Of a DNA stretch of 64,000 nt, positions 1 through 64,000 are shown piece after piece (within the stretch, counting starts at the first letter, position 1; each line of letters begins with the position of its first letter). The DNA comes from a virus (lineage: Duplodnaviria; Caudoviricetes), in IMG/VR virus record IMGVR_UViG_3300025357_000008, positions 96,001 through 160,000 of that record; one strand, 5' to 3'. Below the pieces are notes generated by a model that did no database searches, was not told the DNA's origin, and saw only the letters and a list, made by a program, of their open reading frames with translations. A program made the position numbers and the translations under genes.

Positions 1-2
1 CC

Positions 3-1172
3 GCTGGTTTTGCGAATGCCGCCTATACTTTAGCAAACACAGTAAATGTATACTCATATAGTGCATACGGTTTTGCAAATACAATTAACGTTTATGCTTA
101 TAGTGCTTATAGCGCACAGAACATAACAGCAAGTTTTGCGAATGCCGCTTTCGCTCAAGCTAATGCGGCCTTTAATCAAGCCAATACAGGTTCAAGTTCT
201 GCACCCGCTTTTAATCAAGCGAATGCCGCATTTATACAAGCAAACAATGCATATAATAAAGCAAATAGTGCTTTAGCAAATACTGGTGGTACTTTAACTG
301 GTTCTCTAGGTATTACAGGTTCGTCATCAAACATTGTTGTTTCTCAGAGTGCGACAGCAAGTGATGTAACAAACACATTCAATCATTTATATACTTTAGG
401 TTTATTCTCTGGTAATACCGACCAGTCAATACAAGTTGGTGCACAGAACTTCGCCAACACAGCAAATTCATCTACCGATTTTGCGTTGTACAATAATATT
501 GGTACCGATACTAATAACTATATTGATTTAGGTATCACAAGTAAAGCATATAATACAACACTAAACGGTTTCACAGCATCACAACCAGGTGACGGATATC
601 TATATTCTAACGGTGTTAACTTATTACTAGGTACATATACACCTGGTACTAATATGAAAGTGTTTATTGGTGGCTATACATCAGCAAACGTTTCTACAAC
701 ATTTAATGCACCGAACACAGCATCAAGTTCAAATACTACAGGCACTCTGCTCGTTCAAGGTGGTGTAGGTGTAACTGGTAATGTATACTCAGATAAGATT
801 TATACAAACGGACTATATTATGCCGCTAACGGTAACCCAATATCAACTGGTGGAGGTGGTGGCACAAGTTTAGTCTATACAGCCGCTACGACACCACCAG
901 CATCAGGAAATAACAAAGGTGACCAGTGGTACAATACTGCAACTAATGTATTGTATGAATGGGCAACTGACGGTACAAGTTACTTCTGGTTAGACACAAT
1001 ATCACCAGTATATTCAAATACTGCAAACGTAAACATAATTACATCTGGTAATGTTAATACTAATGTGGTCTTTGCGAACTCGGTATATATAGGAACTCAA
1101 AATGCAAATTCATATATACAATCATACATTCAACAAAACACGATACATCCACTAATGTTTGTGGGTCTATAG
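3..1172 (+). CDS. tail fibre/virion protein, 5'-truncated (frame is open from the window start, not from 486)
   Basis: Frame open from nt 3 (AGFANAAYTLAN...). ANAAFxQ heptad repeats, a GTLLVQGGVGVTGN fibre motif, a GDQWYN...WLD module and a C-terminal HPLMFVGL. Confidence 0.75.
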   Translation, partial: AGFANAAYTLANTVNVYSYSAYGFANTINVYAYSAYSAQNITASFANAAFAQANAAFNQANTGSSSAPAFNQANAAFIQANNAYNKANSALANTGGTLTGSLGITGSSSNIVVSQSATASDVTNTFNHLYTLGLFSGNTDQSIQVGAQNFANTANSSTDFALYNNIGTDTNNYIDLGITSKAYNTTLNGFTASQPGDGYLYSNGVNLLLGTYTPGTNMKVFIGGYTSANVSTTFNAPNTASSSNTTGTLLVQGGVGVTGNVYSDKIYTNGLYYAANGNPISTGGGGGTSLVYTAATTPPASGNNKGDQWYNTATNVLYEWATDGTSYFWLDTISPVYSNTANVNIITSGNVNTNVVFANSVYIGTQNANSYIQSYIQQNTIHPLMFVGL

Positions 1173-1181
1173 GGGATATCA

Positions 1182-1511
1182 ATGGCAGTTAATTATAAAA
1201 TTTTAGGACAATCTAATCCGGCCGCTAATACTACCACAACAGTATACACGGTTCCTGCGGCCACTCAAACTGTCGTTTCAACTATTCAAGTTTGCAATCT
1301 CTCACCAAACACATCAAGTTTTTCTATAGCGGCACAAAAAGCAGGTGCATCATTAGCAAACTCAATGTATCTTGCATATCAAACACCAATACCTGGTAAC
1401 GATTCAATCAATTACACATTAGGTGTAACTCTTGGTAATACAGATGTAGTATCTGTTTCAGCAAACACAGGGAACATAACATTCTCTTTATTCGGATCTG
1501 AACTTTCATAA
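1182..1511 (+). CDS. small virion connector-like protein (109 aa), paralog of 12461..12790 and 17763..18086
   Basis: YK/R-x-LGQ...YTVP...VCN...FG(S/C)E(L/I) pattern shared with the paralogs; RBS GGGG. Confidence 0.75.
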   Translation: MAVNYKILGQSNPAANTTTTVYTVPAATQTVVSTIQVCNLSPNTSSFSIAAQKAGASLANSMYLAYQTPIPGNDSINYTLGVTLGNTDVVSVSANTGNITFSLFGSELS

Positions 1512-4500
1512 TGGGAATTAGAAGAGCATCAATTGGTACGACAGCCGAAAGAACGGTTAGAAATCAGAGCATATTGCTACCGACTGGTGGTGCTGTTTCT
1601 ACTGGTATAACAACTGTTGTTTATACTGACAGCAATTATAATACGCTAACTGCTAATGCGGCCGCTACAACATACGGTACGTTTAGAATTTTAGGTACCG
1701 GTTTTTCACCAGGTGCAAATGTTTTGGTAGCTAACACAAGTTCAGGAACCATTGCAAACGTCACATCAAATACAACATATATAGGTGCAACTGAAATTCG
1801 TGCAAACGTAAGTGTGACTGCTGGTAACTACGCATTGTACGTTTTTAATCCTAACGGTTCAGCGGCAATCTATTATTCTGGTGTAACATTTCAACCATAT
1901 CCTGTGTGGACAGCAACGAGTTATGCATCTGCCACTACAGTTTCTGTTCAACTTTTAACATCTTCTACTGCTGTCGAACAGCCTATTACATATTCTTTAG
2001 TATCAGGTACGTTACCTACAGGTACAACATTGGCGGCTAACGGTTTAATTAGTGGTACTGCTACAGGTATTCCTAATGCTGGTCAAACATTCACATTTAC
2101 AGTTGCCGCAACAGACATCTATAATGAAACGACACAGGCATCAATCAGTTTAACAATTACGGTAGCTGATGCATATTTTGATTACACTACATTGTTGTTG
2201 AATGGTGAGACTAATTCGAACACTTATATACAAGATGCCGGTGCAAATAATTTTACGCTAACCCCATATGGTTCTTCAACATCAAATAGATTCAGCCCTA
2301 TGTGGGGCGATGGTTATTATGGTAATTCTTTTGATGGTAGTTCTGGGTTTTTAATAACAGCGGCCAATTCTATTCTTGCACCTTCAGCAGATTTTACAGC
2401 AGAGGCTTGGGCATACACTACAATTAATAATAACTTTCAAGGTATAATGAGTACAAGAGATTCCGGTTCAACAACAGGTTGGGGAATCACAATAAATTCA
2501 TCAGGATACTTAGAATTTGTTTGTACTGGTGCAACAGCATATACAGGTACATTAGCACCTTTAAACAGATGGTTTCATGTTGCAATGTCAAAAGTCGGAA
2601 GTACTGTATACTGTTATTTGAATGGTGTTCAAGTTGGAACTTTACCAAGTTCGCCGGCAATTAGCTACAATAGTCTTGGGTTAAGTCTTGGTAGATACTA
2701 TAGTAACGGTAGTAATCAATATTGGTTAAATGGTTATATTAGTAATGCACGTTATATAAATGGAACCGGCATATACACAGGAAGTAGTTTTACAGTTCCT
2801 ACAACACCATTGACAGCGATTGCAAATACTGCTGTCCTAACTTGTCAATCAAATAGATTTATTGATAATGGTCCTAACGGATTGGCAATAACACCGTCAG
2901 GTACAGTTAAAGTAGTACCTAATCAACCATTTGGTTCAATACCAACAACATCAACAGCAAATACAAACAATACTGGTTACTATAGTGCTCAGTTTGATGG
3001 TAGTACGGGGTATTTAAATCTAGGGGGTCAATCGACATTTGCATTTGGCTCTAATAGTTTTACTATTGAGGCTTGGATATACCCATTAACCGCTAGTCAA
3101 ACATCTGTTATAACTGATTTTAGACCCTCAGGAGGTAGCGGAGTATATCAATTATTTTATTTAAATTCAGGTGCTTTAACTTATTGGGTAAACGGCACAG
3201 GTGTTATTGTAGGAAGCTCGCCAGTTGCTGGCGTATGGAGCCACGTTGCAGTAGTAAGGAACGGTACAAGTACAATTATGTATTTAAATGGTGTTCAAAC
3301 AGGTTCTACGTATTCAGATTCTAATAGTTATCTTAATGGCGCCAACGCTCCAGTAATTGGAGGTTTAGGCTATACGAGAGGCCAAAACATTTTTAACGGC
3401 TATATTTCTAACTTTCGTATTGTTAATGGTACCGCAGTATATACTTCAAACTTCACCCCACCGACCACACCACTAACAGCAGTTACAAATACTTCTCTAT
3501 TAACATTACAAAATTCTGTTATTGTTGATAACTCTGCAAATGCATTTACTTTGACACCGACTGGTTCAGTTATAGTATCTAAGAATCAACCATTTGCTTC
3601 ACCGACAGTTACAAGTAATACTATAACACCAAGTGTTTATGGTAGCGTATTGCTTGATGGATCAACAGGATACATGCAAGTACAAGAATCATCTAATCCT
3701 GCATTTGCACTTTCAGGTGATTTTACAATTGAATTGTGGTATTATCCAACAGGTACATCAGGTGGTTACATATACGCACAAACTGTAAGTGGTACAAATT
3801 GGTGTATTATTGGTGCAAGTACTACAACATTAACTGCCGCACAATTTACCGCAACAACGAGTGGTGCTGGCACCGCACAGAATAGTGCGGCAGTTGGAAA
3901 TCCATATTCATGGAATCACTTAGCAGTTTGTAGAAAAAGTGGACAAGTAACTGTCTACTTAAATGGTGTTGGTGGTACATCAGTTACAAATACAACATCA
4001 ATACCATCAACATACTTACCAACCATTAGCGGTTATTCACATTCACAAACAGGTTTATTTGCTGGTTATATTTCAAACATTAGGGTAATTAACGGTACCG
4101 CAGTTTATACGAATAACTTTATACCCCCAACTAGCCCACTAACAGCAGTTGCAAATACATCAGTATTATCATTGCAATATAAAAATTCAGCAAATAACAA
4201 TGTGTATTATGATGACAGCCCAAATAATTTAGTAATTTCTAGAACAGGCATTCCAACACAAGGTACATTTAGCCCATTTAGTCCAACAGGATGGAGTAAT
4301 TACTTAGGTGGTTCTGGTTACTATATTGTTTCAAATTCAACCCCAATATCAACAACAACTTCAACATTCACTATTGAAGGTTGGATAAACATGTCGGCAA
4401 CGCCAGGAGGTTCTGCAAATCCTGCTTTGATTGGTGACATGAACCCAACTGCGGGAACTTGTAATTGGAGTTTTGGACCTAATAACTCAAACGTTTTAGA

Positions 4501-6154
4501 ATTATATGTTGTTGGTGGAACATCTTATACTATTACCGGAAACACAGTAATGTCTTTAGGTACTTGGTATCATGTTGCTGTTTCGGTAAACTCAAATTCA
4601 GTTTCAATGTATGTAAATGGTGTACAGCAAACATTAACTGGCGGCTCGACAATTGTAAATAGAAGCGGTTCTATAGGTTATTTGACTATGGGACAATGGA
4701 ATAGCGGTTCATTTAATTACGCCGGATATGTTAGTAATTTAAGAATATCGAATGTCGCATTATATTCTTCTTCATTCACACCAAGCACAGCACCATTAAC
4801 TGCAATATCTAGTACAGTATTTTTGACTGCCCAGAATAATGGTTTTGTTGATAACTCGACAAACGGGTATAGATTAACTGCAACACAAGCCTCTGTTCAA
4901 GCAGTTTCACCTTTTGCACCAGGCGTCATATACAATCCAGCAGTACATGGGGCAAGTTCATATCACTATAGCGGAAATTATATTTATGGTAGTAATCAGA
5001 TATTCAACGTAAGTAGTCCATCAATGCAATGGCAATTTGAGTGTTGGGTTTATCCAGTAAATCAATCATTCTTCTTTTGTATTGGTAACGGTGGTGCGTA
5101 TGGAAATTCATTCAATTGCGGATTTCAAGGTAATCAATTTACTTTTACTCAGGGTAATGGCAGTAATGGAACAGTAGCAACTCTTAATTCAACAACAAAT
5201 ACTTATAATTATAATCAATGGTATCATTTTGCGATAACTAAAAACGCATCAGGTGTTATTACAATGTGGGTTAATGGTACTTCTCAAGGTACTGTAACTA
5301 ATACATCAGGAACTGCCGCTTCAGGCACAACATTTATTATTTGTGGATTATATGATAATGGTGGATTAGGTTATAGTGGTTTCAGCGGTGGTTCATTTGT
5401 TAGTTATTTTAGTATTGCTAACCCGAGATTTATTGCCGGTGCTCCAATTTATACATCTGCATTTACACCACCTACTGCACCTGTAACTGCTGTTGCGAAT
5501 ACAGCATTGCTATTGAATTTTACTAACACAGGTATTCAAGATGCTACAGGTAAAAATAATATTATAACTTATGGTTCTGCAAAGACTCAAGCAAACACAA
5601 CTAAGTTTGGAACTGGTGCATTGTATTTTGATGGTTCAACTGGATATTGTTCATTCCCTAATGCATTTCCAACCAGCCCTTATTTAAATCTTGGTTCAAA
5701 TAATTTTACAATTGAGTTTTGGTTATATCCTATAACTTTTTCAAATGGTAGTGCATTTTTAACTAAAGGATGGACCGGAAGTTATGGTTCATTTTTGTTT
5801 TATTATTACAACAATACAACACCTCAAATTTATTTTTACGCAGGCTCAAATAATTCTGCATGGGATATTGTAAATGGTGTTTCGATAAATTCAAATTTAA
5901 GTTCAAATACTTGGACACATATTGCAGTAACTCGTTCAGGTAGTAACTTTTATTTGTTCTCAAATGGTGTTTTAACCAATACTGTAACGTCATCGGCTTC
6001 AATATATAACAGTACTGCACCGGTAACAGTCGGTGGTGATAACTCTGGAGGTCATTTATCTAATTGTTATATTGACGATTTAAGAATCACAAATGGTGTT
6101 GCACGATATACATCAACCTTTACCCCAACATCATTAGCTTTTTTAACACAATAA
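1511..6154 (+). CDS. large multi-LamG (concanavalin A-like lectin) receptor-binding/tail fibre protein
   Basis: About 6 repeats of FTIExWxY...WxHxA...YxNG...GYISNxR; N-terminal Ig-like region (YSLVSGTLPTGTTLAANGLISGT). Confidence 0.85.
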   Translation: MGIRRASIGTTAERTVRNQSILLPTGGAVSTGITTVVYTDSNYNTLTANAAATTYGTFRILGTGFSPGANVLVANTSSGTIANVTSNTTYIGATEIRANVSVTAGNYALYVFNPNGSAAIYYSGVTFQPYPVWTATSYASATTVSVQLLTSSTAVEQPITYSLVSGTLPTGTTLAANGLISGTATGIPNAGQTFTFTVAATDIYNETTQASISLTITVADAYFDYTTLLLNGETNSNTYIQDAGANNFTLTPYGSSTSNRFSPMWGDGYYGNSFDGSSGFLITAANSILAPSADFTAEAWAYTTINNNFQGIMSTRDSGSTTGWGITINSSGYLEFVCTGATAYTGTLAPLNRWFHVAMSKVGSTVYCYLNGVQVGTLPSSPAISYNSLGLSLGRYYSNGSNQYWLNGYISNARYINGTGIYTGSSFTVPTTPLTAIANTAVLTCQSNRFIDNGPNGLAITPSGTVKVVPNQPFGSIPTTSTANTNNTGYYSAQFDGSTGYLNLGGQSTFAFGSNSFTIEAWIYPLTASQTSVITDFRPSGGSGVYQLFYLNSGALTYWVNGTGVIVGSSPVAGVWSHVAVVRNGTSTIMYLNGVQTGSTYSDSNSYLNGANAPVIGGLGYTRGQNIFNGYISNFRIVNGTAVYTSNFTPPTTPLTAVTNTSLLTLQNSVIVDNSANAFTLTPTGSVIVSKNQPFASPTVTSNTITPSVYGSVLLDGSTGYMQVQESSNPAFALSGDFTIELWYYPTGTSGGYIYAQTVSGTNWCIIGASTTTLTAAQFTATTSGAGTAQNSAAVGNPYSWNHLAVCRKSGQVTVYLNGVGGTSVTNTTSIPSTYLPTISGYSHSQTGLFAGYISNIRVINGTAVYTNNFIPPTSPLTAVANTSVLSLQYKNSANNNVYYDDSPNNLVISRTGIPTQGTFSPFSPTGWSNYLGGSGYYIVSNSTPISTTTSTFTIEGWINMSATPGGSANPALIGDMNPTAGTCNWSFGPNNSNVLELYVVGGTSYTITGNTVMSLGTWYHVAVSVNSNSVSMYVNGVQQTLTGGSTIVNRSGSIGYLTMGQWNSGSFNYAGYVSNLRISNVALYSSSFTPSTAPLTAISSTVFLTAQNNGFVDNSTNGYRLTATQASVQAVSPFAPGVIYNPAVHGASSYHYSGNYIYGSNQIFNVSSPSMQWQFECWVYPVNQSFFFCIGNGGAYGNSFNCGFQGNQFTFTQGNGSNGTVATLNSTTNTYNYNQWYHFAITKNASGVITMWVNGTSQGTVTNTSGTAASGTTFIICGLYDNGGLGYSGFSGGSFVSYFSIANPRFIAGAPIYTSAFTPPTAPVTAVANTALLLNFTNTGIQDATGKNNIITYGSAKTQANTTKFGTGALYFDGSTGYCSFPNAFPTSPYLNLGSNNFTIEFWLYPITFSNGSAFLTKGWTGSYGSFLFYYYNNTTPQIYFYAGSNNSAWDIVNGVSINSNLSSNTWTHIAVTRSGSNFYLFSNGVLTNTVTSSASIYNSTAPVTVGGDNSGGHLSNCYIDDLRITNGVARYTSTFTPTSLAFLTQ

Positions 6155-6180
6155 ATAGAACATAAAAGGAGAAAATTGAG

Positions 6181-6576: not shown

Positions 6577-6577
6577 C

Positions 6578-6910
6578 ATGGCATTTCCAACCTCACCCAC
6601 TAACGGTCAAACAGCAGTAGTAAATGGTATTTCATATACCTATAACTCTACGACTAATTCGTGGGGAAGAGTTGCTCAAAGTGTCCGAATCACATACACA
6701 GCGAGTCCTACACCACCTACAAATCCACTTCAAGGTGACCAGTGGTACAATAATACGACTGATGTGCTTTACGAATACACAAACGATACCGTTTCATCTT
6801 ATTGGTTAGACATACAGACACCAGCATTTGTTGGTTCAAACGCAACAACAGTTACAGGAGTATCGACAGGTAAATCACTTGCTATGTCGGTATTATTCGG
6901 AGCACAATAA
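6578..6910 (+). CDS. small virion adaptor protein
   Basis: MAFPTSPTNGQ N-terminus, GDQWYN...WLD module, C-terminal TGKSLAMSVLFG. Confidence 0.7.
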   Translation: MAFPTSPTNGQTAVVNGISYTYNSTTNSWGRVAQSVRITYTASPTPPTNPLQGDQWYNNTTDVLYEYTNDTVSSYWLDIQTPAFVGSNATTVTGVSTGKSLAMSVLFGAQ

Positions 6911-12790: not shown

Positions 12791-13707
12791 TGGCAGTTAA
12801 AAGAGATTCTCAAAACTCTGTTAAGAATAGAACAATCTCTGCTATCAATAGTGGTGGTGGAGGTGGTTCTACCACATCAACTACATATCAAATTCGTTAC
12901 TTAGCAGTAGCTGGTGGAGGTGGAGGTGGTTACGCACCAGGATCACCAAAAACTACAGTTGGTGGAGGAGGTGGTGGTGGCGGATTTTTACAAAGTCAAG
13001 CACTTTTAACTGTTGGTGTGCCTTATACTATAACAGTTGGTTCCGGCGGTAATAGAACACCATCAGCATGTGGTGCACACGTAGGAGGTACTGGTTCAAA
13101 CTCAACTATTTGTGGATCGGGATTTTCAGTAACTGCATATGGCGGTGGAGGTGGGGGTGCCGGTCCTGCAGTTGCTGGTACACCAGGTGGTTCTGGAGGT
13201 GGTGGAAATAGTTTAGGTGGTACAGGCGTATCGGGTCAAGGAAATCCTGGTGTTGCATGTTTTTTTCTAGCACCAACAAATCCTGGTTGTAATTATGGAA
13301 ATGGTGGAGGAGGTGGCGCAGGTTCACCAGGTTTTAAATTTCCTGCAACAGGTTTTACATCACCGACTGTTTATGGTGGTGGTCAAGGTGGCTACGGTGC
13401 AATAAGCGATATTTCAGGAACTGTACAATATTACAGTTGTGGTGGTGGTGGTGCATCTGTAAATAATGGCGTTACAGCAACTGGTGGATATGGCTTATCT
13501 ACATATGGAACTGGCGGCCCTGGAAGAAGTACACCAGTAACAGGTTCAGTAGCTGGTTCACCAGGTATTGTAATTATTTCATATGTAAGTCCGACACAAA
13601 AAGGTACAGGCGGTACGGTAACTTCTTATAGTCCGCCAACATCACCTTCAACAGTCATACAGGTTCACACATTCTCGTCAACTGGAACGTTTACGTATAC
13701 AGGATAA
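12790..13707 (+). CDS. glycine-rich domain tail fibre/receptor-binding protein
   Basis: VAGGGGGG...ITVGSGG...GSGGGG...GIVIISY...HTFSSTGTF. Confidence 0.75.
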   Translation: MAVKRDSQNSVKNRTISAINSGGGGGSTTSTTYQIRYLAVAGGGGGGYAPGSPKTTVGGGGGGGGFLQSQALLTVGVPYTITVGSGGNRTPSACGAHVGGTGSNSTICGSGFSVTAYGGGGGGAGPAVAGTPGGSGGGGNSLGGTGVSGQGNPGVACFFLAPTNPGCNYGNGGGGGAGSPGFKFPATGFTSPTVYGGGQGGYGAISDISGTVQYYSCGGGGASVNNGVTATGGYGLSTYGTGGPGRSTPVTGSVAGSPGIVIISYVSPTQKGTGGTVTSYSPPTSPSTVIQVHTFSSTGTFTYTG

Positions 13708-19243: not shown

Positions 19244-20014
19244 ATGCAAGTGCAAAACAGAACCGATTTTACTAACTATTGCTTACGTAGGCTTGGTGCA
19301 CCTGTAATTGAAATTAACGTTGACCCAGACCAAATACAAGACCGTATTGACGATGCTCTTCAATATTGGCAAGATTATCACTATGATGGTATTCAAAAAT
19401 GTTATTGGATTAAACAAATTGATTCTACTGATATTGCTAATCAATATCTAGATTGTTCAAATGCGGTAGATTCAAATAACAATTCAGTTCAAATTATTGG
19501 TGTTTCAAGAATCTTTCCGTATACAGATTCACAGGCAAACGTCAATATGTTTGACTTAAGATACCAATTACGTTTAAATGAACTGTACGATTTCACATCA
19601 GCTTCATACGTTAACTTCACATTAACACAACAGCACCTTCGTTCACTAGAACTTATGTTCACTGGTGAAATACCAATTCGTTTTAACAGACACATGCAAC
19701 GTCTTTATATTGACCAAGCATGGGGTAACGAAGAAGCTCCTGCAGGTGAAGTTATTGTTGCAGAAGCATATGCAATTATTAATCCAGACCAATATAATAA
19801 AGTTTGGGACGACCGTTGGTTAAAACTATATGCAACAGCATTAATTAAAAAACAATGGGGTAATAATCTTGCTAAATTCTCAGGTCTTCAATTACCTGGT
19901 GGTGTTAAACTAGACGGACAAAAGATTCAAGAAGATGCTGACAATGAAATTAAGTATCTACAAGAACAAATGCAGAATGAATATGGTGCACCGTTAGAAT
20001 GGTTTATGAATTAA
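19244..20014 (+). CDS. gp13: neck protein gp13
   Basis: YCLRRLGAPVIEINV, KQWGNNLAKF.G.QLPGGV.LDG; synteny. Confidence 0.92.
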   Translation: MQVQNRTDFTNYCLRRLGAPVIEINVDPDQIQDRIDDALQYWQDYHYDGIQKCYWIKQIDSTDIANQYLDCSNAVDSNNNSVQIIGVSRIFPYTDSQANVNMFDLRYQLRLNELYDFTSASYVNFTLTQQHLRSLELMFTGEIPIRFNRHMQRLYIDQAWGNEEAPAGEVIVAEAYAIINPDQYNKVWDDRWLKLYATALIKKQWGNNLAKFSGLQLPGGVKLDGQKIQEDADNEIKYLQEQMQNEYGAPLEWFMN

Positions 20015-36579: not shown

Positions 36580-37125
36580 ATGAAAAAACCAAAGGAATAT
36601 GTTAATAATGCAGATTTTACTCAAGCATTAATTGATTATAAAATAGCATCGGAAGAGGCGAAACGTCTCGGCAAGCCTAAACCAAAGATCCCGAATTACA
36701 TCGGTGAATGTTGGATGAAGATTGCCGAGAATTTCTCACACAAACCTAACTTTATTAATTACCCACATCGGGAAGAAATGGTATCAGACGGTATAGAAAA
36801 CTGTCTAATGTATTTCGAAAACTTTGATCCCAACAAATCTAAAAACCCATTTGCTTACTTCTCTCAAGTAGTATTCTTTGCGTTCTTACGTAGAATAGAA
36901 AAAGAGAAGAAACAGCTATACGTCAAATACAAATCTACAGAAATGCTTGGTGTCTTAGATGAACACGAGCAAAATGACTTTGAAGACGGTACTTCAAGGC
37001 AGTTTCAACTGTATGACAACATTGGCGAATTCATTTCTAATTACGAAAAATCTAAAAAGACTAAACTTGCCAAAACTAAAAAGAAAGCAAAAGGTCTTGA
37101 AAAATATATTAAGGAGACGGTATGA
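36580..37125 (+). CDS. gp55: late-transcription sigma factor gp55
   Basis: YVNN..F, YIGEC..KIA, NF.NY, DGIENC, NPFAYF, AFLRRIEKEKKQ. Confidence 0.95.
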   Translation: MKKPKEYVNNADFTQALIDYKIASEEAKRLGKPKPKIPNYIGECWMKIAENFSHKPNFINYPHREEMVSDGIENCLMYFENFDPNKSKNPFAYFSQVVFFAFLRRIEKEKKQLYVKYKSTEMLGVLDEHEQNDFEDGTSRQFQLYDNIGEFISNYEKSKKTKLAKTKKKAKGLEKYIKETV

Positions 37126-37562
37126 TTGATTACAACGGTTTAAAAATAGGCTTCACATGTTCTTGTTTTGATTTGTTTCATGCCGGACATGTAATGATGT
37201 TGAAAGAGGCGAGAACACAATGCGACTATTTAATTGTAGGTCTACAATCTGACCCTACCATTGATAGACCAGAAAAGAATAAACCGGTACAAACATTACT
37301 AGAACGATATATTCAACTTGAAGGTTGCAAGTACGTAGATGAAATAGTTCCCTATTCCACCGAAAAAGAGTTGATGGACATCTTGACAAGTTACCCAATT
37401 GATGTTAGAATAATAGGAGAAGAGTACAGGGACAAGCAATTTACTGGGTTTAACCTATCAATGTCTGTGTACTTTAATTCAAGACAACACAGTTTCAGTA
37501 CAACAGAACTAAGACAACGTGTATTAACAGCAAACACAAAAAACATTACACCACCTAAATGA
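37122..37562 (+). CDS. cytidylyltransferase (TagD-like)
   Basis: FDLFHAGH (HxGH), CDYLIVGL, YVDEI, RQHSFSTT. Confidence 0.88.
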   Translation: MIDYNGLKIGFTCSCFDLFHAGHVMMLKEARTQCDYLIVGLQSDPTIDRPEKNKPVQTLLERYIQLEGCKYVDEIVPYSTEKELMDILTSYPIDVRIIGEEYRDKQFTGFNLSMSVYFNSRQHSFSTTELRQRVLTANTKNITPPK

Positions 37563-38632: not shown

Positions 38633-40341
38633 TATTATTTAAAAAGATTCGATGGAAGAATTTTCTATCCACCGGAGCGCATTTTACTGAGATTGACTTT
38701 ACAAAATCTACGAACACATTAATTGTGGGGCATAACGGTGCCGGTAAGTCAACTATATTAGATGCGTTGTGTTTCGTTTTGTTTAATAAGCCTTATCGCA
38801 AGATAAACAAGACACAGATACCGAACTCTATTAACAATTCAGATTGTCTTGTTGAAATTGAGTTTGATATTGGCACAAAGAAGTATAAAGTTATAAGAGG
38901 TATCAAACCTAATACGTTTGAAATCTATTGTAACGGTGTTTTAGTGAACCAGGATGCGAAAGCAAAAGACTATCAGGAACATTTAGAGAAGTTTATTCTC
39001 AAACTAAATTATAAGTCCTTTACGCAAGTAGTCATCCTTGGTTCCGCCTCTTTTGTTCCGTTCATGCAGTTAGAAACTAAGGACCGCAGAACAATTATTG
39101 AGGACTTATTAGACATTGAAATTTTCTCTGAGATGAATGTTATTCTTGCCGATAAGTTAAAGATTGTTAAGAGTAATCTAATACAGAACACAAGCGATAG
39201 AAAACTCAAAGCAGAATTGATTAAGACTAATGAAAGTTTTATTGAACAACAGAAACAGTCACATGCAGAAGAGATTGAAACAAAAAGAAACGAAATCAAA
39301 GAATCATCCGGTGTTATTGAGAAGTTACAATCTGACATTAAACTTATTAATAAACACATTGAGGTTTTACAATCTAAAATACAAGACAAAGAATCAGTTG
39401 AAGCAAAGACAAAGAAACTTTTTCAGCTTGAAGCGAAGATTGAGTCTAATATAAAGAAAGTTAAAAAGGATATTGAGTTCTATGAAAAAAATGACCATTG
39501 CCCAACCTGTAGACAATCAATCGAACCAGGATTCAAAACAGACCAAGTTACCGAACGTCAAAGCAAAGTCGATGTTCAACAAAAGGGTCTTGAAGAAATT
39601 ACAGAGGAAATTAACAAGCGAAACGAACGATTAACAGAAATATCTGCAATAGTTAAACATATCAACGCACATAATAATGAAGTTATTACACATAACTCAA
39701 CAATATCTGCCACACAAAGATATGTTTCAAAATTATTAAAAGAAATTGACGAACTATCAATCAAACGAGACACTCTTGCAGAAGAGACCGGTATAAAGAC
39801 ATTGAGAGTTGAGTTGGAGTCCTTGCAGTCAGACCATGAAGAACTTCATAAGACGAAACAGTATTATGACTTTGCCGCCACGCTATTGAAAGATACTGGT
39901 ATCAAGACTAAGATAGTTCGTCAATATTTGCCAATTATGAACAAGTTAATCAATAAGTATCTGACTGCAATGGACTTTTTTGTTAACTTTAATATAAACG
40001 AGAACTTTGAGGAGACAATTAAATCGAGACATCGTGATGAATTTAGCTATTCTAATTTCTCAGAAGGTGAAAAACTTAGAATTGATTTGGCATTATTATT
40101 TACCTGGCGTGAGATTGCTAGAATGAAGAACTCTACTAATACGAATCTATTAATATTAGATGAAGTATTTGATTCTAGTCTTGACATTGCCGGTACGGAA
40201 GAGTTTATGAAATTACTCAATCAACTTGGTACTGATACTAATTTGTTTGTGATTTCACATAAGGGCGACCAGCTATTTGATAAGTTTAGGTCGGTGATTA
40301 AATTTGAGAAGAAAACAAACTTTAGTAGGATTGTAAAATGA
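38629..40341 (+). CDS. gp46: recombination ATPase gp46 (Rad50-like)
   Basis: GHNGAGKST, CPTC hook, FSEGEK, LDEVFDSSLD. Confidence 0.96.
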   Translation: MILFKKIRWKNFLSTGAHFTEIDFTKSTNTLIVGHNGAGKSTILDALCFVLFNKPYRKINKTQIPNSINNSDCLVEIEFDIGTKKYKVIRGIKPNTFEIYCNGVLVNQDAKAKDYQEHLEKFILKLNYKSFTQVVILGSASFVPFMQLETKDRRTIIEDLLDIEIFSEMNVILADKLKIVKSNLIQNTSDRKLKAELIKTNESFIEQQKQSHAEEIETKRNEIKESSGVIEKLQSDIKLINKHIEVLQSKIQDKESVEAKTKKLFQLEAKIESNIKKVKKDIEFYEKNDHCPTCRQSIEPGFKTDQVTERQSKVDVQQKGLEEITEEINKRNERLTEISAIVKHINAHNNEVITHNSTISATQRYVSKLLKEIDELSIKRDTLAEETGIKTLRVELESLQSDHEELHKTKQYYDFAATLLKDTGIKTKIVRQYLPIMNKLINKYLTAMDFFVNFNINENFEETIKSRHRDEFSYSNFSEGEKLRIDLALLFTWREIARMKNSTNTNLLILDEVFDSSLDIAGTEEFMKLLNQLGTDTNLFVISHKGDQLFDKFRSVIKFEKKTNFSRIVK

Positions 40342-40970
40342 GTGAATTTAAATTAGTCATTGAAGATGATAAAAAGACTTCAACAAAAAAGGTAGCTGAT
40401 GACGTAATCAGTTTTGATACGAGCAAGGCACTAGAACTACCAAAAGTAAGAAGAACGGCACCTTTAGTTCCTGAATATCATCCAGTTTTAAGTGAAGTTC
40501 TACCTGAGTTTGATTTCAGTAAACCTCCTATGGATCCTACAGAACTTGCTTCAATACTTGTTGATACATGCATCGAAAATAAAGGCTACGGTCTATCTGC
40601 AAATCAAATAGGTATTAAACACCGAGTATTTGTTATGGGTGCAGGTGATGAATATGTTGCGTTCTTTAACCCTAAATTGATTGCAACTCGTGGTAGCGTT
40701 CATATGGAAGAAGCATGTTTATCGTTTCCGTTACTAATGTTGCATCTTACCAGACCGGCAGAAGTTGATGTTGAATACCAAGACTACACAGGAGAGGTAA
40801 AAACAGCAACATTTCACGGTATAAGTGCAAGATGTTTCTTACATGAGCTTGACCACATGAACGGAATAGTGTATACTAGCCTTGCAAAACCTTTAGCCTT
40901 GCAAAGCGGTTACAAGAAACGCATGAAACTTTTAGGTAAACTTGGGTATAAATTTAAGAAAAGAAAATAA
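40338..40970 (+). CDS. def: peptide deformylase
   Basis: GYGLSANQ, EEACLS, HELDH. Confidence 0.92.
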   Translation: MSEFKLVIEDDKKTSTKKVADDVISFDTSKALELPKVRRTAPLVPEYHPVLSEVLPEFDFSKPPMDPTELASILVDTCIENKGYGLSANQIGIKHRVFVMGAGDEYVAFFNPKLIATRGSVHMEEACLSFPLLMLHLTRPAEVDVEYQDYTGEVKTATFHGISARCFLHELDHMNGIVYTSLAKPLALQSGYKKRMKLLGKLGYKFKKRK

Positions 40971-42550
40971 TGACACAATATTATTATGAAAAGAATCAAA
41001 AACTACTTGATTCTAATGTGAATGTGACGTTTGATGATGTCTTAAAGATGACTACTGACGAATTTCGTCAATGGGTTATAAATCTACGCAAGACTGTTGT
41101 AGACCTATGGGACAACGAAAACTTGCCTCCTAGAGTAGGCTACAACAAGAAAGAAATTATCAAACAGTTTGCAGAGATGCCAACGTTTCCGGTTCACAAG
41201 TTTTTAGTTAAAGACCAGCTAACAGGCGAACTAGACGTAATCAGAAACACAAGTAATGTCGGTAATGCAGTCAATCAATGGTTTCCTACCATGATGAAGA
41301 CACGTATTAACTACACAAAGAATGATGATGGTAAGTCTATCTATGATTATTTTGCTAAACCTGAACTATTAGATACATTTGTAACGTATGCGACAAGACA
41401 CTTTAAACGTGATTCGTTCTATCATTATTCACTTGTAGTCAAATCAGAAGATACCGAAAATACTGGTAGTCTTCCTATATCGTCAACAGGTAAAGAATGG
41501 ATACAAGAGTTCGAGCAGACATTTAGAAAACAAGGTAAGTTTGATTACTGGTTACAATCTAAAGATATAACTGCCGGTTATGATGGCTACAGCGAAGAAC
41601 TGAAGAACACAAAATTTCTTTCTATAAGTAAAGCAGAAATTGAAGAACTCGGTGACCTCATACCAGAACTTTGTAAATCAAATCTTAACTTTGACAAGTC
41701 AGAACATGCCGTCATTAGATACTATCAGCACGGTCAGAAACTGTTTCCAATAGGTTTAAAAGCGTTCAGAGTATCTTTCTGTCAGTATGCTGTAAACTTC
41801 CCGCCATTGACAGCCAAATACTTGTATGAACGTTTTACAGATTCATTTAAAGACCAGGAATTGATTAAAATCTACGATCCATCTTCAGGATGGGCAGGAA
41901 GACTTCTTGGTGCGATGAGTGTCAAAGATGATAGAAACGTTTTGTATATCGGTACTGATCCTAATACCGACCACACAACGACAACCGGTAGAACTAAGTA
42001 TGATGAAATTGCAGACTTCTACCGCAAGAACGTTAAGAAAGGTGGTTTGTTTTCCCATCAAGTACAACAAACTAAAACTGAAATATACCAGTTAGGTTCA
42101 GAAGTCATTCAGTTTAACGAAGACTTTCAGAAACACAAAGGTACAATTGATTTAATCTTTACTTCACCACCATACTTTGCAAAAGAAGCGTATTCAGAAG
42201 ACCCTGAGCAGTCTTATAAAAAGTTCGGTCAGTATGATGAATGGCGAGAAGGCTTTTTACGTCCTACATTAGAAACTGCCGTTGCATGGTTGAAGAACGA
42301 CAGATACATTCTATGGAACATTGCAGATGCCGTATTCGGTGGTGATATGTTGCCGTTAGAAAAAGATAGTCAAGACATACTAGAATCATTAGGTATGGTC
42401 TATAAAGGTAAGATTAAAATGGCTCTTGCACAGATGCCAGGTGGGAATCGTGTTGATTCGGAAACAGGATTACCCAAAGCAAAGAATTTCTGTAAGGTGA
42501 ATGGTATGTGGTTAAAGTATGAACCGGTATTTGTGTTCTACAAACCTTAA
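40970..42550 (+). CDS. putative DNA amino-methyltransferase (m4C/m6A)
   Basis: DPSSGWAG (SAM-binding motif I) followed by DLIFTSPPYF (motif IV); long N-terminal region. Confidence 0.75.
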   Translation: MTQYYYEKNQKLLDSNVNVTFDDVLKMTTDEFRQWVINLRKTVVDLWDNENLPPRVGYNKKEIIKQFAEMPTFPVHKFLVKDQLTGELDVIRNTSNVGNAVNQWFPTMMKTRINYTKNDDGKSIYDYFAKPELLDTFVTYATRHFKRDSFYHYSLVVKSEDTENTGSLPISSTGKEWIQEFEQTFRKQGKFDYWLQSKDITAGYDGYSEELKNTKFLSISKAEIEELGDLIPELCKSNLNFDKSEHAVIRYYQHGQKLFPIGLKAFRVSFCQYAVNFPPLTAKYLYERFTDSFKDQELIKIYDPSSGWAGRLLGAMSVKDDRNVLYIGTDPNTDHTTTTGRTKYDEIADFYRKNVKKGGLFSHQVQQTKTEIYQLGSEVIQFNEDFQKHKGTIDLIFTSPPYFAKEAYSEDPEQSYKKFGQYDEWREGFLRPTLETAVAWLKNDRYILWNIADAVFGGDMLPLEKDSQDILESLGMVYKGKIKMALAQMPGGNRVDSETGLPKAKNFCKVNGMWLKYEPVFVFYKP

Positions 42551-42567
42551 GTGTACCGCAGAAATCG

Positions 42568-42596
42568 TTGACAAAAGTATTAAATAGTAGTATAAT
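42568..42596 (+). promoter_or_regulatory. sigma70 consensus promoter
   Basis: TTGACA-17-TATAAT. Confidence 0.8.
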
Positions 42597-42648
42597 TGTC
42601 ATACTCAAGTAATTGAGCTTTATTGTTATTTTTATTATAGGAGTTAGA

Positions 42649-42936
42649 ATGACTACATTATCAGCAAAACAAAAAATGTTGCAAGCATTGAAAAACGAGC
42701 AAACTTTTACAGTTGCACAAGCAAGAGCCCGTTTCGGTGTTGCAAACGTTCCAGCACGTATTGAAGAACTTCGCAAAGAAGGTCATTGCATCTACACAGG
42801 TAGACGCCGTAATAGTGAAGGTAAACGTGTTAACTATTACACAATGGGACCAGCAACTAAGTCTCTAGTGCAGTATGCTTTGGCTGCCGGCTATTCTTTT
42901 AGCCGCCGTCACAATGGTAACCCATTGACAGCCTAA
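42649..42936 (+). CDS. small winged helix-turn-helix protein (start moved to ATG 42649)
   Basis: FTVAQARARFGVANVPARIEELRKEGHCIY; RBS AGGAG. Confidence 0.7.
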   Translation: MTTLSAKQKMLQALKNEQTFTVAQARARFGVANVPARIEELRKEGHCIYTGRRRNSEGKRVNYYTMGPATKSLVQYALAAGYSFSRRHNGNPLTA

Positions 42937-59140: not shown

Positions 59141-60120
59141 TTTTTTTAACTTTACTTACCGCTTTATCACTTTCCGGTGTAGCGGCATACTATTCAGTAA
59201 TAGGACTTACTGCAATTTTCCCTGGTTCTTATTGGCCTATTATTGTAATGGGTTCTGTCTTTGAAGTGGCAAAACTTGTCACAATATCATGGACATATAG
59301 AAATTGGGAGACTGCACCGAGAAGTCTTAAAGCACCTTTTGTCACAGCAGTTGTTATTTTGATGTTCATCACATCAATGGGTATCTTTGGGTATCTATCA
59401 AAAGCACACTTAGAACATTCAGCAGACTTAGGTCCTATTGTTGACAAAGTGGCAATCATTGATGAGAACATAAAAGTTGAAAGGGAAAACATTGAAACTG
59501 TCCGTAAAAATCTCAAACAAATGGATGATAGCGTTGAACAAATTATGGGTAGAACGGATACAGAAAAAGGTGCCGAGAAATCCAATTTTATACGCAACAG
59601 TCAGAAAGCAGAACGTAGCCGTCTACTTAACGAAATCACCGTTTCGCAACAGAAGATTGCTGTTCTCAATACTGAGAGAGCACCGATTGCGAACGAGCTT
59701 AGAAAGGCAGAGTCGGATTTTGGGCCGATAAAATATATTGCAGAGTTAATCTATGGTTCTGGTGACCGAGATGTGATTGACAAAGCAGTTCGTCTAGTCA
59801 TAATGTTAATTATGATTGTGTTTGACCCATTAGCAGTATTGCTTTTAATTGCCGCTAATCGTTCTATCAAAGAACAATATGATGAGATGTCAGTTAAGAA
59901 GTGGTTCAAAAAAGAAGAACCTAAAGAAGAACAGAAACCAACAACGTTTGTAAATGAAGTCACACCGAACATAACAACACCTCCGTTATGGACAACAGTT
60001 CAAGTTGATAAAGAGAATATAGCAAATATAGCATCACCTGGAGTCGCATCGACTACATATGATTATTCAGTTCCTTTTGCCTTTGAAAAGGCGAAAGATA
60101 TAGCAAGTGGTAAGTTTTAA
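59137..60120 (+). CDS. membrane protein with a central coiled coil
   Basis: N-terminal TM helices, GIFGYLSKAH, C-terminal VFDPLAVLLL. Confidence 0.75.
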   Translation: MIFLTLLTALSLSGVAAYYSVIGLTAIFPGSYWPIIVMGSVFEVAKLVTISWTYRNWETAPRSLKAPFVTAVVILMFITSMGIFGYLSKAHLEHSADLGPIVDKVAIIDENIKVERENIETVRKNLKQMDDSVEQIMGRTDTEKGAEKSNFIRNSQKAERSRLLNEITVSQQKIAVLNTERAPIANELRKAESDFGPIKYIAELIYGSGDRDVIDKAVRLVIMLIMIVFDPLAVLLLIAANRSIKEQYDEMSVKKWFKKEEPKEEQKPTTFVNEVTPNITTPPLWTTVQVDKENIANIASPGVASTTYDYSVPFAFEKAKDIASGKF

Positions 60121-60132
60121 TAGGAGAACATT

Positions 60133-60342
60133 ATGGGAAAAGCGTTAGAGAAAGCAACAATTAGTGAGAAGTTGGCAAAAGTAAATGATAGTTTTACTGT
60201 CAACATGTATGACAATGGTTTTATGTTTGAAATCTCTGGTCGTGATGATACAGATGATTGGAAAAGCGCAAAGATTGTTGTGAATACAATTGAAGACCTA
60301 GTAGACTTAATCAATGAGGCACAAACTCTACCAAGAGATTAA
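60133..60342 (+). CDS. hypothetical protein (69 aa)
   Basis: RBS AGGAG. Confidence 0.7.
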   Translation: MGKALEKATISEKLAKVNDSFTVNMYDNGFMFEISGRDDTDDWKSAKIVVNTIEDLVDLINEAQTLPRD

Positions 60343-60345
60343 TCT

Positions 60346-61416
60346 ATGAGTATACTTGAGAAGTTAAAGAAGAACACCAGTATCAAGGAATCTGCTGTTC
60401 TTTCTAAATCTAAGTTCTTCACAGAGAAGGACATGATTCCTACTTCAATTCCTATCATCAACGTTGCACTTAGCGGTGCACTTGATGGTGGGTTAACACC
60501 TGGTCTCACAATGTGGGCCGGTCCTTCAAAGCACTTTAAAACTGCTTTTAGTCTTCTAATGGCAAAATCTTACTTAGACAAATATAAAGATGCGGCTCTC
60601 TTATTCTACGATAGCGAGTTTGGAACTCCTCAGTCTTACTTTGACTCGTTTGGTATTGACACTAATCGTGTTTTACATACACCACTTACTGACATCGAAC
60701 AGTTAAAGTTTGATATTATGCAACAGTTAACTCAATTAGAACGTAAAGATAAACTGATTATCATTATTGATTCAATCGGTAATCTTGCATCTAAGAAAGA
60801 AGTTGACGATGCATTAGAAGGTAAGTCGGTTGCTGATATGTCTCGTGCGAAACAAGTCAAATCATTGTTTAGAATGGTAACACCTCATCTGACAATGAAA
60901 GATATACCGATGATTGTTGTAAATCATACTTACAAAGAAATCGGTATGTTCCCAAAAGACATTGTAGGTGGTGGTACAGGTTCTTATTACTCTGCGGATA
61001 ACATCTTTATTCTCGGTAGACAACAAGAGAAAGAAGGCACAGAAGTTGTAGGTTACAATTTCATTATCAACGTAGAAAAGAGTCGTTATGTCAAAGAGAA
61101 ATCTAAAATACCAGTTAATGTATCTTTTGATGGTGGTATTAGCAAGTGGTCTGGCTTACTTGATATCGCTCTCGAATCTGGTCATGTAATCAAACCTTCT
61201 AACGGATGGTATTCTAAAGTTGACCTTGATGGTGTTGTAGAAGACAAAAAGTATCGTTTGAAAGAGACTGATACAAAAGAATTCTGGACACCAATTCTTA
61301 GAAATGTAACATTTCAAGACTTTATCAAACAGAAATATCGAATAGCTACTGGTAATATTATGCGTGGTGATATTGAAGAAGCATTTGCAGTAGAAACTAC
61401 TAATGGTGCTGAATGA
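60346..61416 (+). CDS. uvsX: RecA-like recombinase UvsX
   Basis: AGPSKHFKT, FYDSEFG, DSIGNLASKKE. Confidence 0.96.
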   Translation: MSILEKLKKNTSIKESAVLSKSKFFTEKDMIPTSIPIINVALSGALDGGLTPGLTMWAGPSKHFKTAFSLLMAKSYLDKYKDAALLFYDSEFGTPQSYFDSFGIDTNRVLHTPLTDIEQLKFDIMQQLTQLERKDKLIIIIDSIGNLASKKEVDDALEGKSVADMSRAKQVKSLFRMVTPHLTMKDIPMIVVNHTYKEIGMFPKDIVGGGTGSYYSADNIFILGRQQEKEGTEVVGYNFIINVEKSRYVKEKSKIPVNVSFDGGISKWSGLLDIALESGHVIKPSNGWYSKVDLDGVVEDKKYRLKETDTKEFWTPILRNVTFQDFIKQKYRIATGNIMRGDIEEAFAVETTNGAE

Positions 61417-61808
61417 TAGACTGTATGATTCTAGGTGATAGCATTGCGGTCGGGACTGAAATGTTCCGACCTGAATGTGTTGCATACGCTAAAGGTGGTT
61501 GGAATTCTTGGCAATGGAAGAAAGATTATCTTCAAAATGATTTGACTGCTAACACAGTTATCATTAGCCTTGGTTCTAACGACCACAAAGGTGTTAAGAC
61601 TAGAGAAGAACTAGAAATCATCCGTGGTAAAATTAAAGGTAGCAGAGTATTCTGGATTCTACCGGCAATCAAGCCTAATATTCAACAAATCGTAAAAGAA
61701 ATTGCTGAAGAACATGGTGACACAGTTCTACCAATCACAAAATTACAACCAGACGGTATACATCCTAGTTGGGCGGGTTATAAAGAATTAGCCAGAGAAA
61801 CAAAATGA
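61413..61808 (+). CDS. SGNH/GDSL hydrolase
   Basis: GDSI, GSND, DGIHP. Confidence 0.85.
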   Translation: MIDCMILGDSIAVGTEMFRPECVAYAKGGWNSWQWKKDYLQNDLTANTVIISLGSNDHKGVKTREELEIIRGKIKGSRVFWILPAIKPNIQQIVKEIAEEHGDTVLPITKLQPDGIHPSWAGYKELARETK

Positions 61809-62125
61809 CAGAAGGTATTGACTATTGCTTTATCTATCCTAAAAATGATAAAACGGTAACTCACATCAAACTTTTAGATGGTGAATACAAAGATACCGTT
61901 TTTAAATATGGTAAAGTAAAAATAACGGAAGAAATAGACGGACCCCATTTACATTTTGCTTTCGATGTGTTAGAATCAACAGTCAAGAAGCCTAAAAAAC
62001 TACAGAATGATGTTAATTTCAAACAGTATCTTGGTGATATGTTAGTTGAATTAATGAGTGATAATATTGACGAGGAAATAATTGATGAGACTAGAACAGA
62101 CGATATTAAGGAACCTGATTTATAA
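61805..62125 (+). CDS. hypothetical protein (occupies the gp40 position)
   Basis: Between uvsX and g41. Confidence 0.6.
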   Translation: MTEGIDYCFIYPKNDKTVTHIKLLDGEYKDTVFKYGKVKITEEIDGPHLHFAFDVLESTVKKPKKLQNDVNFKQYLGDMLVELMSDNIDEEIIDETRTDDIKEPDL

Positions 62126-63455
62126 TGAAGAGTACATTCGCAAGGTACTCCCTTTCCTCAAAGATGAGTACTTCTCGGATTCAATTGAGAGGACAATTTT
62201 CAAAGAACTCAGCGCATTTGTTTCAAAGTACAATACTACACCAACGATTGAAGCAATTGGATTGGCCATCAAAGAGAGGAGAAATCTCTCAGATGCTGAA
62301 GTGGAGAAGTCAGAATCTTATCTACAAGAGATTGTATCGTCTAAGGGAGAAGAATCCAAGATTCAATGGCTTATTGAAAAGTCAGAAGCCTTTTGTCAAG
62401 AAAGGGCAATCTACAACGCAGTATTGGGGTCTATTTCTATATTGGACGGTAAGGACAAAACAAATGACAAAGGTGCGATACCCAAAATATTATCGGACGC
62501 TTTATCGGTAAGTTTTGACAATTCAATTGGGCATGATTACTTGGAGAACTCTGATGAACGATACGACTTCTACCACAGAAAAGAAGAACGAATTCCGTTT
62601 GACCTCGACATGTTTAATAAGATTACAAAAGGAGGTCTCCCGATTAAGACTCTTAATATTGCTCTTGCTGGCACCGGTGTTGGTAAGTCCCTTTTTATGT
62701 GTCATTGTGCCGCTGGAAATATGTCGATGGGTAGAAACGTTCTTTACATCACTATGGAAATGGCTGAAGAACGTATTGCAGAAAGAATAGATGCAAATCT
62801 ATTGAATGTGACACTTGATGATTTGTTAGATTTACCTAAAGAGACTTATGATAAGAAAGTTGCGAATCTTAAGAACAAAGTAACAGGTAAATTAATCATC
62901 AAAGAGTATCCTACCGCATCTGCATCATCACTACATTTCAGAACCCTACTTAATGAACTTAATCTTAAAAAATCGTTTGTTCCAGATATCATCTATATTG
63001 ATTATCTTAATATTTGTTGTTCTTCTCGAATTAAACCCGGTTCCAATATCAACTCCTACACCTACGTCAAATCCATTGCAGAAGAGTTGCGAGGTCTTGC
63101 CGTTGAATTCGGAGTACCAATTGTTTCTGCTACACAAACAACACGGTCAGGATATGGTAGTTCAGATCCAGGACTCGAAGACACGAGTGAGTCTTTTGGT
63201 TTGCCAGCTACAGCCGACATGATGTTTGCCTTGATTAGTTCTGAAGAACTTGAAGGACTCGGACAGATAATGGTCAAACAGTTGAAAAATAGATACACAG
63301 ACCCATCACAATTCAAAAGATTTGTTGTAGGTATTGACAAACCTAAAATGAGACTGTATGATATTGATGATTCAGGTCAAACAGGTATCGTTGATTCAGG
63401 TATGCCATTTAAATCTGAAAGTCCTAAGAAAAAGTTTGAAGGTTTCAAGGTATAA
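62085..63455 (+). CDS. gp41: replicative helicase gp41
   Basis: AGTGVGKS, IDYLNIC, SATQTTRSG, SESFGLPATAD, KQLKNRY. Confidence 0.97.
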   Translation: MRLEQTILRNLIYNEEYIRKVLPFLKDEYFSDSIERTIFKELSAFVSKYNTTPTIEAIGLAIKERRNLSDAEVEKSESYLQEIVSSKGEESKIQWLIEKSEAFCQERAIYNAVLGSISILDGKDKTNDKGAIPKILSDALSVSFDNSIGHDYLENSDERYDFYHRKEERIPFDLDMFNKITKGGLPIKTLNIALAGTGVGKSLFMCHCAAGNMSMGRNVLYITMEMAEERIAERIDANLLNVTLDDLLDLPKETYDKKVANLKNKVTGKLIIKEYPTASASSLHFRTLLNELNLKKSFVPDIIYIDYLNICCSSRIKPGSNINSYTYVKSIAEELRGLAVEFGVPIVSATQTTRSGYGSSDPGLEDTSESFGLPATADMMFALISSEELEGLGQIMVKQLKNRYTDPSQFKRFVVGIDKPKMRLYDIDDSGQTGIVDSGMPFKSESPKKKFEGFKV

Positions 63456-63462
63456 ATAAACG

Positions 63463-64000
63463 ATGGGAGTCAATACACAAGCACTAATAGACGAGAAGGC
63501 GGCCTTTAACAAGGTCAAAAAACTTCTTGGCAATCCACAAACATTTGCAGAACCTGCAGGCTTTGATGTAGGATTCCCTGACTTTGGTTTTTCAGTATTT
63601 GTCAATAAGAAACGTGTTGACTTATTCTTTGAATATAAATCAAGTTATAAGGCTCAAATGGGTTCAATGAGAAACTGGACATTTGAGAAAGGTGTTTTTG
63701 ATGCACCGGATGCGGAAACTTCACAAGAAAAACAGCAACTGCTAGAAGTTATGAACGCAACAAAAGCGGCAAAAGATAATGCTGAAAGATTGCTTGAAGA
63801 CTTTCATAATTACTTTGACAATCCTAAAAAACCGATGTATAATATCACAAAGATTTCATCGGGTATGCTTTCAGTTGAAAAGAATCTTGCTATGAGAAAA
63901 GTTAGACTACAACACTTCTCAAACAATACTGAAAAGTTTTCAATTGCAAATATTGACAGCAGTAATCTTGGTGCTGAGATTCTAAATCACTATCACAAAA
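63463..64000 (+). CDS. 3'-truncated ORF, possible PD-(D/E)xK nuclease-fold protein (absent from the ORF track)
   Basis: Open from ATG 63463 to the window end; FPDF...FFEYK; late promoter at 63451. Confidence 0.6.
   Translation, partial: MGVNTQALIDEKAAFNKVKKLLGNPQTFAEPAGFDVGFPDFGFSVFVNKKRVDLFFEYKSSYKAQMGSMRNWTFEKGVFDAPDAETSQEKQQLLEVMNATKAAKDNAERLLEDFHNYFDNPKKPMYNITKISSGMLSVEKNLAMRKVRLQHFSNNTEKFSIANIDSSNLGAEILNHYHK

Follow-up and report, generated by a model that had tools for sequence, protein, structure and literature searches.

In a 64,000-nucleotide stretch of phage DNA (hereafter the window; bases 96001-160000 of a 170,261-bp IMG/VR virus record), the sequence GATC survives only where its terminal G or C is doubled, that is, within GGATC or GATCC. 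The same survivor rule recurs for other purged sites and across relatives of this phage, and we consider it probable, though far from assured, that the phage withstands many host restriction enzymes by means of a covalent modification that it directs to CC/GG steps. The source genome has a guanine plus cytosine content of 37% and was judged complete by CheckV. It belongs to a T4-like myovirus whose DNA polymerase shares 46-50% identity with the polymerases of cyanomyoviruses and Methylophilales phage Melnitz. Among its genes are those for gp43-47, UvsX, peptide deformylase, MazG, and a late sigma factor.

A preliminary description of the window, made by eye, had reported that every GATC found lay within GGATC or GATCC. 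Exact counting bore this out: all 41 GATC sites in the window are so flanked, HGATCD does not occur, and the sites that had been given by position (1495, 6325, 14593, 33601, 41876, 57125, and 63165) are present. Over the whole genome, 131 of 134 GATC sites are flanked in this way, the three exceptions (genome positions 31946, 46203, and 56827) all lying beyond the window. As a null model for the source genome, we shuffled synonymous codons within genes across all 233 open reading frames (ORFs), and paired figures for motifs are given below as observed/expected. Against this null, GATC is depleted overall (134/405, ratio 0.33), unflanked HGATCD is nearly eliminated (3/230, ratio 0.013), and GGATC/GATCC is close to its expected abundance (143/191, ratio 0.75). 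The chance of finding 41 of 41 sites flanked is about 1e-15, and that of at least 131 of 134 about 1e-43. NGGATC occurs at 0.64-0.82 of expectation for every N, so that the base outside the GG is without influence, and the surviving sites lie in unrelated, unique contexts, save for a few paralogous repeats in fibre genes.

GATC is one of many purged words in this genome. CGCG is absent (0/81), CGWCG is nearly so (2/91, ratio 0.02), CASTG (32/173), AGCT (142/490), GACGC (17/107), and GAATGC (24/68) are all strongly depleted, and 14 hexamer palindromes, including AAGCTT, ATCGAT, ACTAGT, TCATGA, and GCATGC, are at zero. Short palindromes thus fall far under a codon-aware expectation, as in restriction-site avoidance, and the range of purged sites makes it evident that numerous restriction systems confront this phage. 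The surviving copies of purged words have their terminal C or G doubled: CACTG followed by G stands at 28/43, against 4/127 for the remaining three flank bases; GAATGC followed by C at 20/11, against 4/57 with other flanks; CTGCAG preceded by C at 8/22, against 2/78; GACGAC followed by C at 7/6, against 1/23; and GACGC preceded by G at 8/15. The four CTGCAG sites of the window (the first at 13166) had been described as CCTGCAG, which the count confirmed, and the fifth site in the genome is CTGCAGG. Palindromes with an observed/expected ratio below 0.35 make up 25 of the 82 that lack CC/GG and 1 of the 20 that contain it. Several of the surviving GAATGCC sites recur in an Ala-Asn-Ala-Ala repeat of fibre genes (GCG AAT GCC GCN; window 14-230, corresponding to genome 96014, 96140, and 96221, and genome 84619 and 86665), where GCC is used because GCWGC is avoided, and they are thus partly non-independent. 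CC and CCC themselves are mildly under-represented against the codon-shuffle null (ratios 0.96 and 0.82).

To the relatives, 26 further contigs of the same clade (33-177 kb), we applied a flank scan in which each depleted 4-6-mer, scored against an order-2 Markov expectation, was lengthened by one base and the counts compared per flank base. Other clade members have purged different sites and follow the same rule, survivors having a doubled end C or G, in more than 20 genomes, and at least 10 further motifs in the relatives obey it. Examples include CTCTTC followed by C (12/13, against 1/61 with other flanks) and GCATGC preceded by G (7/10 against 1/50) in G003, GTGCAC preceded by G in G020 (20/26 against 4/68), CTGCAG and CAGCTG preceded by C in G013 (8/10 against 0/53 and 6/10 against 0/37), CCGCG in G007 (12/31 against 6/86), and GACATC in G008, which is rescued from both ends. 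When we pooled 234 depleted words from 13 clade genomes, sites beginning with G and preceded by G stood at 862/1475, or 0.58 of expectation, against 0.12-0.15 with other flanks, and sites beginning with C and preceded by C stood at 0.31, against 0.13-0.17; words ending in A or T showed no flank effect. Words containing CC/GG are 18% of the depleted words in the clade (baseline, 38% of testable words). In six T4-like isolates that served as controls (Melnitz, S-SSM4, DSL-LC03, Cr30, DLP6, and phiM12) they are over-represented among the depleted words, at 54% (baseline, 40%).

The footprint is general across motifs and across genomes of the clade and is absent from the unrelated T4-like isolates: the six controls showed no general flank rescue, and in Cr30, DLP6, phiM12, and S-SSM4 the ratios ran from 0.6 to 1.5. 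Those four isolates also speak against the reading that there is no protection at all and that the pattern is a mutational or structural artefact or the product of a biased expectation model. We regard such an artefact as highly improbable, since both nulls, codon-shuffle and Markov, lead to the same result, no effect is seen in A/T-ended words, and a mutation-selection balance could not hold flanked sites at 0.6-0.9 of the neutral level with unflanked sites at 0.01. The escape from depletion of overlapping sites, over many unrelated recognition sequences, is the pattern expected of a motif-directed protective modification.

We infer from the footprint both that a modification is its cause and that the phage encodes it. 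Together with its T4-like relatives, which form a large uncultured clade of freshwater type, the phage would meet hosts rich in restriction systems and would have lost GATC, GCWGC, CGCG, CGWCG, CASTG, AGCT, CTGCAG, GAATGC, GACGC, and many hexamers to selection. The phage DNA most likely bears a covalent mark at CC/GG dinucleotide steps, and a site whose outermost C:G pair lies in such a step would be shielded from mark-sensitive enzymes. Selection would then stop removing shielded sites, so that GGATC, CACTGG, GAATGCC, and CCTGCAG persist near expectation. A single flank, and hence one strand, would suffice for shielding, which appears stronger when the base within the site is the 5′ C of CC (3′ G of GG), and this stronger geometry points to that 5′ C as the main target. 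The rule of survival at a CC/GG edge stands as such for more than 16 motifs in more than 20 genomes, with its two geometries unequal (0.58 against 0.31) and with GCWGC, CGCG, and CGWCG outside it.

Several observations weigh against a CC/GG-directed modification. In the source genome, CGCG, CGWCG, and GCWGC gain no rescue from a flank, and some words that contain CC/GG are still depleted (CCSGG 11/44; GGCC at a ratio of 0.66). Among clade members, G002 has been purged without rescue (GATC 0/258, GGATC 0/84) and G015 largely so. Some host enzymes insensitive to the mark would be expected to produce such failures of rescue in some motifs and lineages. Rescue occurs whichever C of CC, 5′ or 3′, lies within the site, and would therefore imply either that both bases are marked or that the mark is a bulky group, able to impede enzymes even from the neighbouring pair. 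Outside the clade, Melnitz-1 (MZ577095.1; L219, L222-L226) retains GAAGAC only as GAAGACC (15/16 against 0/74). Family searches of the whole source genome found no Dam, C5-methyltransferase (PF00145), TET, TAGT, or ThyA-like dCMP/dUMP (deoxycytidine/deoxyuridine monophosphate) hydroxymethylase (PF00303), and TGT/DpdA (PF01702) and QueC (PF06508) gave no match at E≤1 in the complete genome, though a very divergent DpdA might escape such a search. Lastly, no modifying enzyme was found to co-occur with the footprint, and motif-matched pooling gave no link to P0001, the methyltransferase-like gene considered below.

GCWGC is one of the motifs outside the rule. The preliminary description had held that a single rule accounts for GATC, GCNGC, and CTGCAG alike, and its observations on GCNGC were sound. 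GCWGC is nearly absent (2/211, ratio 0.01) in the codon-shuffled comparison that it had called for, and the window's sole exception is the GGCTGCC that it had cited. The first codon of 254 Ala-Ala pairs is GCC in 171, GCG in 82, GCT in 1, and GCA in none, so that 253 of 254 begin with GCC or GCG; before other residues Ala is encoded by GCA 1992 times, GCT 1045, GCC 462, and GCG 266, GCA and GCT together making up 81%. The unification fails, however, because GCWGC with a CC/GG flank is itself at 2 against about 52 expected, and a rule without rescue here does not cover all three patterns. GCSGC is over-represented (283/90), which is better read as the result of a GCWGC-specific enzyme (TseI/BbvI-type) and codon compensation.

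Another possibility is that replication substitutes a modified nucleotide for every C or every G, one such base in a site being tolerated by most restriction enzymes and two adjacent ones blocking them. Such full replacement would leave the same footprint and need no motif-reading enzyme, which fits the failed enzyme search, and a MazG-like deoxynucleoside triphosphate pyrophosphohydrolase, ThyX, and a clade-specific GATase-like gene are present in the source genome. We nevertheless judge it unlikely, given that dCMP/dUMP hydroxymethylase, QueC, and TGT were not found and that CGCG, GCWGC, and CTGCAG are still strongly purged, which would be unexpected if each C or G were altered. A phosphorothioate, with GpsG as the bond to be cut, was set aside on reasoning, since it would suit ^GATC cleavage alone and none of the other enzymes.

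Single-motif flank rescues occur outside the clade too. In Melnitz-1, GAGCAC persists as GAGCACC (6/6 against 2/21) and CTGCAG mostly as GCTGCAG, and in Synechococcus phage DSL-LC03 (OR003938.1; L234-L241) GGCC occurs solely as GGGCC and GGCCC (23/12 and 10/7, others 0), which suggests overlapping methylation of the GGNCC type. The DSL-LC03 GGGCC and Melnitz GCTGCAG cases give some colour to the idea that several site-specific methyltransferases of phage or host (for GGATC, one of the M.AlwI type) protect longer overlapping sites. To explain the clade in this way strikes us as very unlikely: at least 16 distinct motifs share one flank rule, only a single methyltransferase gene is present in the source genome, no gene with an amino-methyltransferase motif occurs in G020 or G021, both complete relatives, and the C5-methyltransferase family had no match in the clade genomes tested.

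A host cause, either a widespread host methyltransferase whose mark on CC/GG-containing DNA passes to the phage or restriction enzymes that are intrinsically poor at doubled G/C flanks, would agree with the partial cases in Melnitz and with the independence of the rule from the variable slot genes of the phage described below. In vitro, flanking bases alter the activity of restriction enzymes only modestly, and such effects could not yield 0.01 against 0.75 over more than 16 specificities; moreover, the rule is common to clade members whose purged sets clearly differ, so that their hosts or strains should differ too, and G002 lacks it. We find this account quite improbable. Site-specific methylases, host effects, and artefacts are thus all unlikely, and apart from a protective mark at CC/GG steps we found nothing that would account for over 16 recognition sequences across more than 20 genomes.

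The preliminary description had singled out one gene of the window, P0001, for expression in a methylation-free host. P0001 (Table 1) is the only DNA-methyltransferase-like gene in the genome by profile and motif searches. It has the features of the PF01555 class, namely a motif IV of the form (S/D/N)PP(Y/F) (here FTSPPY), an S-adenosylmethionine (SAM) motif I (DPSSGWAGR), and a Rossmann fold, and it has in addition an N-terminal domain some 290 aa long. Its score against Pfam PF01555 is 29.9 bits (cut-off, 26.7), with a match that covers profile positions 1-61 only. All 13 homologues from fetched genomes carry FTSPPY and DPSSGW(A/G/S)GR (DPSMGWGGR in G002), and FTSPPY is invariant across an alignment of 50 sequences. 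The predicted model (predicted local distance difference test score, 87) has as its nearest folds the m2G tRNA methyltransferases Trm11, TrmN, and Trm14 (Z 15.5-16.4), only about 1 Z unit over generic methyltransferases, and the best sequence match in the PDB is a weak one to the putative modification methylase 2zie (E 0.17). P0001 has more than 1,500 metagenomic homologues and no close homologue among 50,697 phage records.

P0001 is not the origin of the rule. The complete genomes of G020 and G021 have no P0001 homologue and no ORF for a (D/N/S)PP(Y/F) methyltransferase, and they keep the flank rule intact (GGATC 189/203, AGATC 33/352), so that the gene is not required and was ruled out as the source. 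A narrower role, as the source of the weaker geometry alone (C before a site beginning with C), was hinted at by pooled data and failed per-genome and motif-matched tests; contigs without P0001 keep that geometry (CTGCAG preceded by C 13/18 against 13/89, CAGTG 44/102 against 24/316). In P0001-bearing genomes, CCAGTG is rescued above CCACTG (130/196 and 75/195). A second, shorter paralogue family (334-424 aa, with TSPPYF and D(P/T)xxGWG(G/D)R) lies elsewhere in some relatives' genomes, at times alongside P0001 (G005:31300-32571, G008:55539-56540, G017, and G019).

P0001 is instead an accessory enzyme of a variable modification or counter-defence slot. This slot, bounded by peptide deformylase and a winged-helix gene that is present in all complete clade genomes and in none of the six isolates, is hypervariable across the clade (window 40338-42936; L183:17603-18868, L190:11301-13416, L200:4336-5600) and looks like a hotspot for DNA modification or counter-defence. 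It holds P0001 in the source genome, a DruA-like protein (PF14236) in G006, and TAGT (PF20691) in both G007 and G008, accompanied in G007 by a TrmB-like SAM methyltransferase; in G020 and G021 an interval of similar length, about 1.4 kb, lies there.

Table 1. Coordinates of the footprint and of the sites and genes discussed, in window positions
Feature	Position	Strand	Details
Compositional footprint	1..64000	.	41 GATC, all GGATC/GATCC; GCWGC 1; CGCG 0; CTGCAG 4, all CCTGCAG; CASTG 16, 14 of them flanked to give CC/GG
CCTGCAG, one of four in the window	13165..13171	.	Other CTGCAG at 19740, 33488, 63554
Peptide deformylase, left edge of variable slot	40338..40970	+	Pfam PF01327 1e-31; synteny
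P0001, SPPY amino-methyltransferase-like, 526 aa	40970..42550	+	PF01555, motifs I and IV
Winged-helix protein, 107 aa, right edge of variable slot	42613..42936	+	Pfam HTH_39 3e-9
GGCTGCC, sole GCWGC of the window	42882..42888	.	GCTGC at 42883
orf265, 265 aa	42984..43781	+	Sub-threshold Anp1 (glycosyltransferase family) match

Other gene candidates were sought around the slot and by comparing the complete clade genomes with the isolates. orf265 is present in all clade genomes examined and was rejected as the determinant, as Cr30, DLP6, and phiM12 also carry it and show no rescue. The clade-specific genes comprise GATase-like, GT2, GT-like, cytidylyltransferase, and sugar-type O-methyltransferase genes, fibre-like proteins, and small ORFs; the GATase-like gene (genome 11153-11809), the GT2 and GT-like genes (genome 160573-162149), and many of the small ORFs are in all complete clade genomes and in none of the isolates, and no gene in these lists could be tied to DNA. 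A GT2 gene, a GT-like gene of 289 aa, a 93-aa ORF, and a TylF-type O-methyltransferase gene lie at genome 160287-164245, partly past the window's end, and a cytidylyltransferase-like gene lies at window 37122-37562; the TylF-type, 93-aa, and cytidylyltransferase-like genes have partial profiles across clade genomes and isolates. The products of these genes may act on DNA or on sugars of the host surface.

A bolder form of the CC/GG-directed modification, which we put forward only tentatively, is that a large and abundant clade marks every CC/GG step with a new, probably bulky base modification, made by enzymes outside the recognised DNA-modification families, that blocks most Type II enzymes touching the step, the neighbouring hypervariable slot adding second marks specific to each lineage. 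The clade is widespread in the environment, a marker gene for it being found at more than 580 IMG/VR loci. The sequence footprint alone points to a DNA modification aimed at a dinucleotide in these phages, and the analysis corrects the obvious candidate gene. If such a modification is confirmed, it would represent a new anti-restriction chemistry or enzyme, with possible use in DNA labelling or protection, and would account for the tolerance of certain sites by these phages. Our literature search found no account of avoidance that is conditional on a CC/GG flank, and conditional avoidance of this kind could then be used to search phage genomes cheaply, by computation, for hidden DNA modifications.

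Classical restriction-site avoidance, as in staphylococcal phage K, which has wholly lost GATC, resembles the present case in its strong purging of many palindromes; in the source phage, unlike phage K, whether a site is purged depends on the base beside it. Among viral enzymes with short motifs, M.CviPII of chlorella virus NYs-1, a cytosine C5-methyltransferase of CCD, offers the likeness of a virus-laid, CC-directed mark, and a 5′ C target would suit the stronger geometry seen here, whereas the source genome has no PF00145 gene and its SPPY enzyme is dispensable for the rule. TET/TAGT hypermodification islands (PF20691) have a partial parallel in G007 and G008, where TAGT occupies the place that P0001 has here, and the source genome, unlike such islands, is without TAGT, TET, and C5-methyltransferase. 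Phage CAjan carries 7-deazaguanine modification at GA and GGC. Mom of phage Mu, which makes N6-carbamoylmethyl-adenine at a short degenerate motif (PMC3299994), shares with our proposal a single phage function acting on a short motif and protecting against a wide range of restriction enzymes. Mom targets adenine, whereas C:G pairs are what the present footprint follows, and the source genome showed no Mom homologue, though no search aimed at Mom was made. The closest precedent would appear to be dPreQ0, a 7-deazaguanine, at GA in Pseudomonas phage iggy, which is reported as a protective modification directed to a dinucleotide (PMC10484667). Insertion of such bases is the work of phage DpdA. 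The context there is GA and here GG/CC, with no TGT/DpdA or QueC gene found in the source phage, and the likeness would lie in a partial, dinucleotide-level, post-replicative mark that shields overlapping restriction sites.

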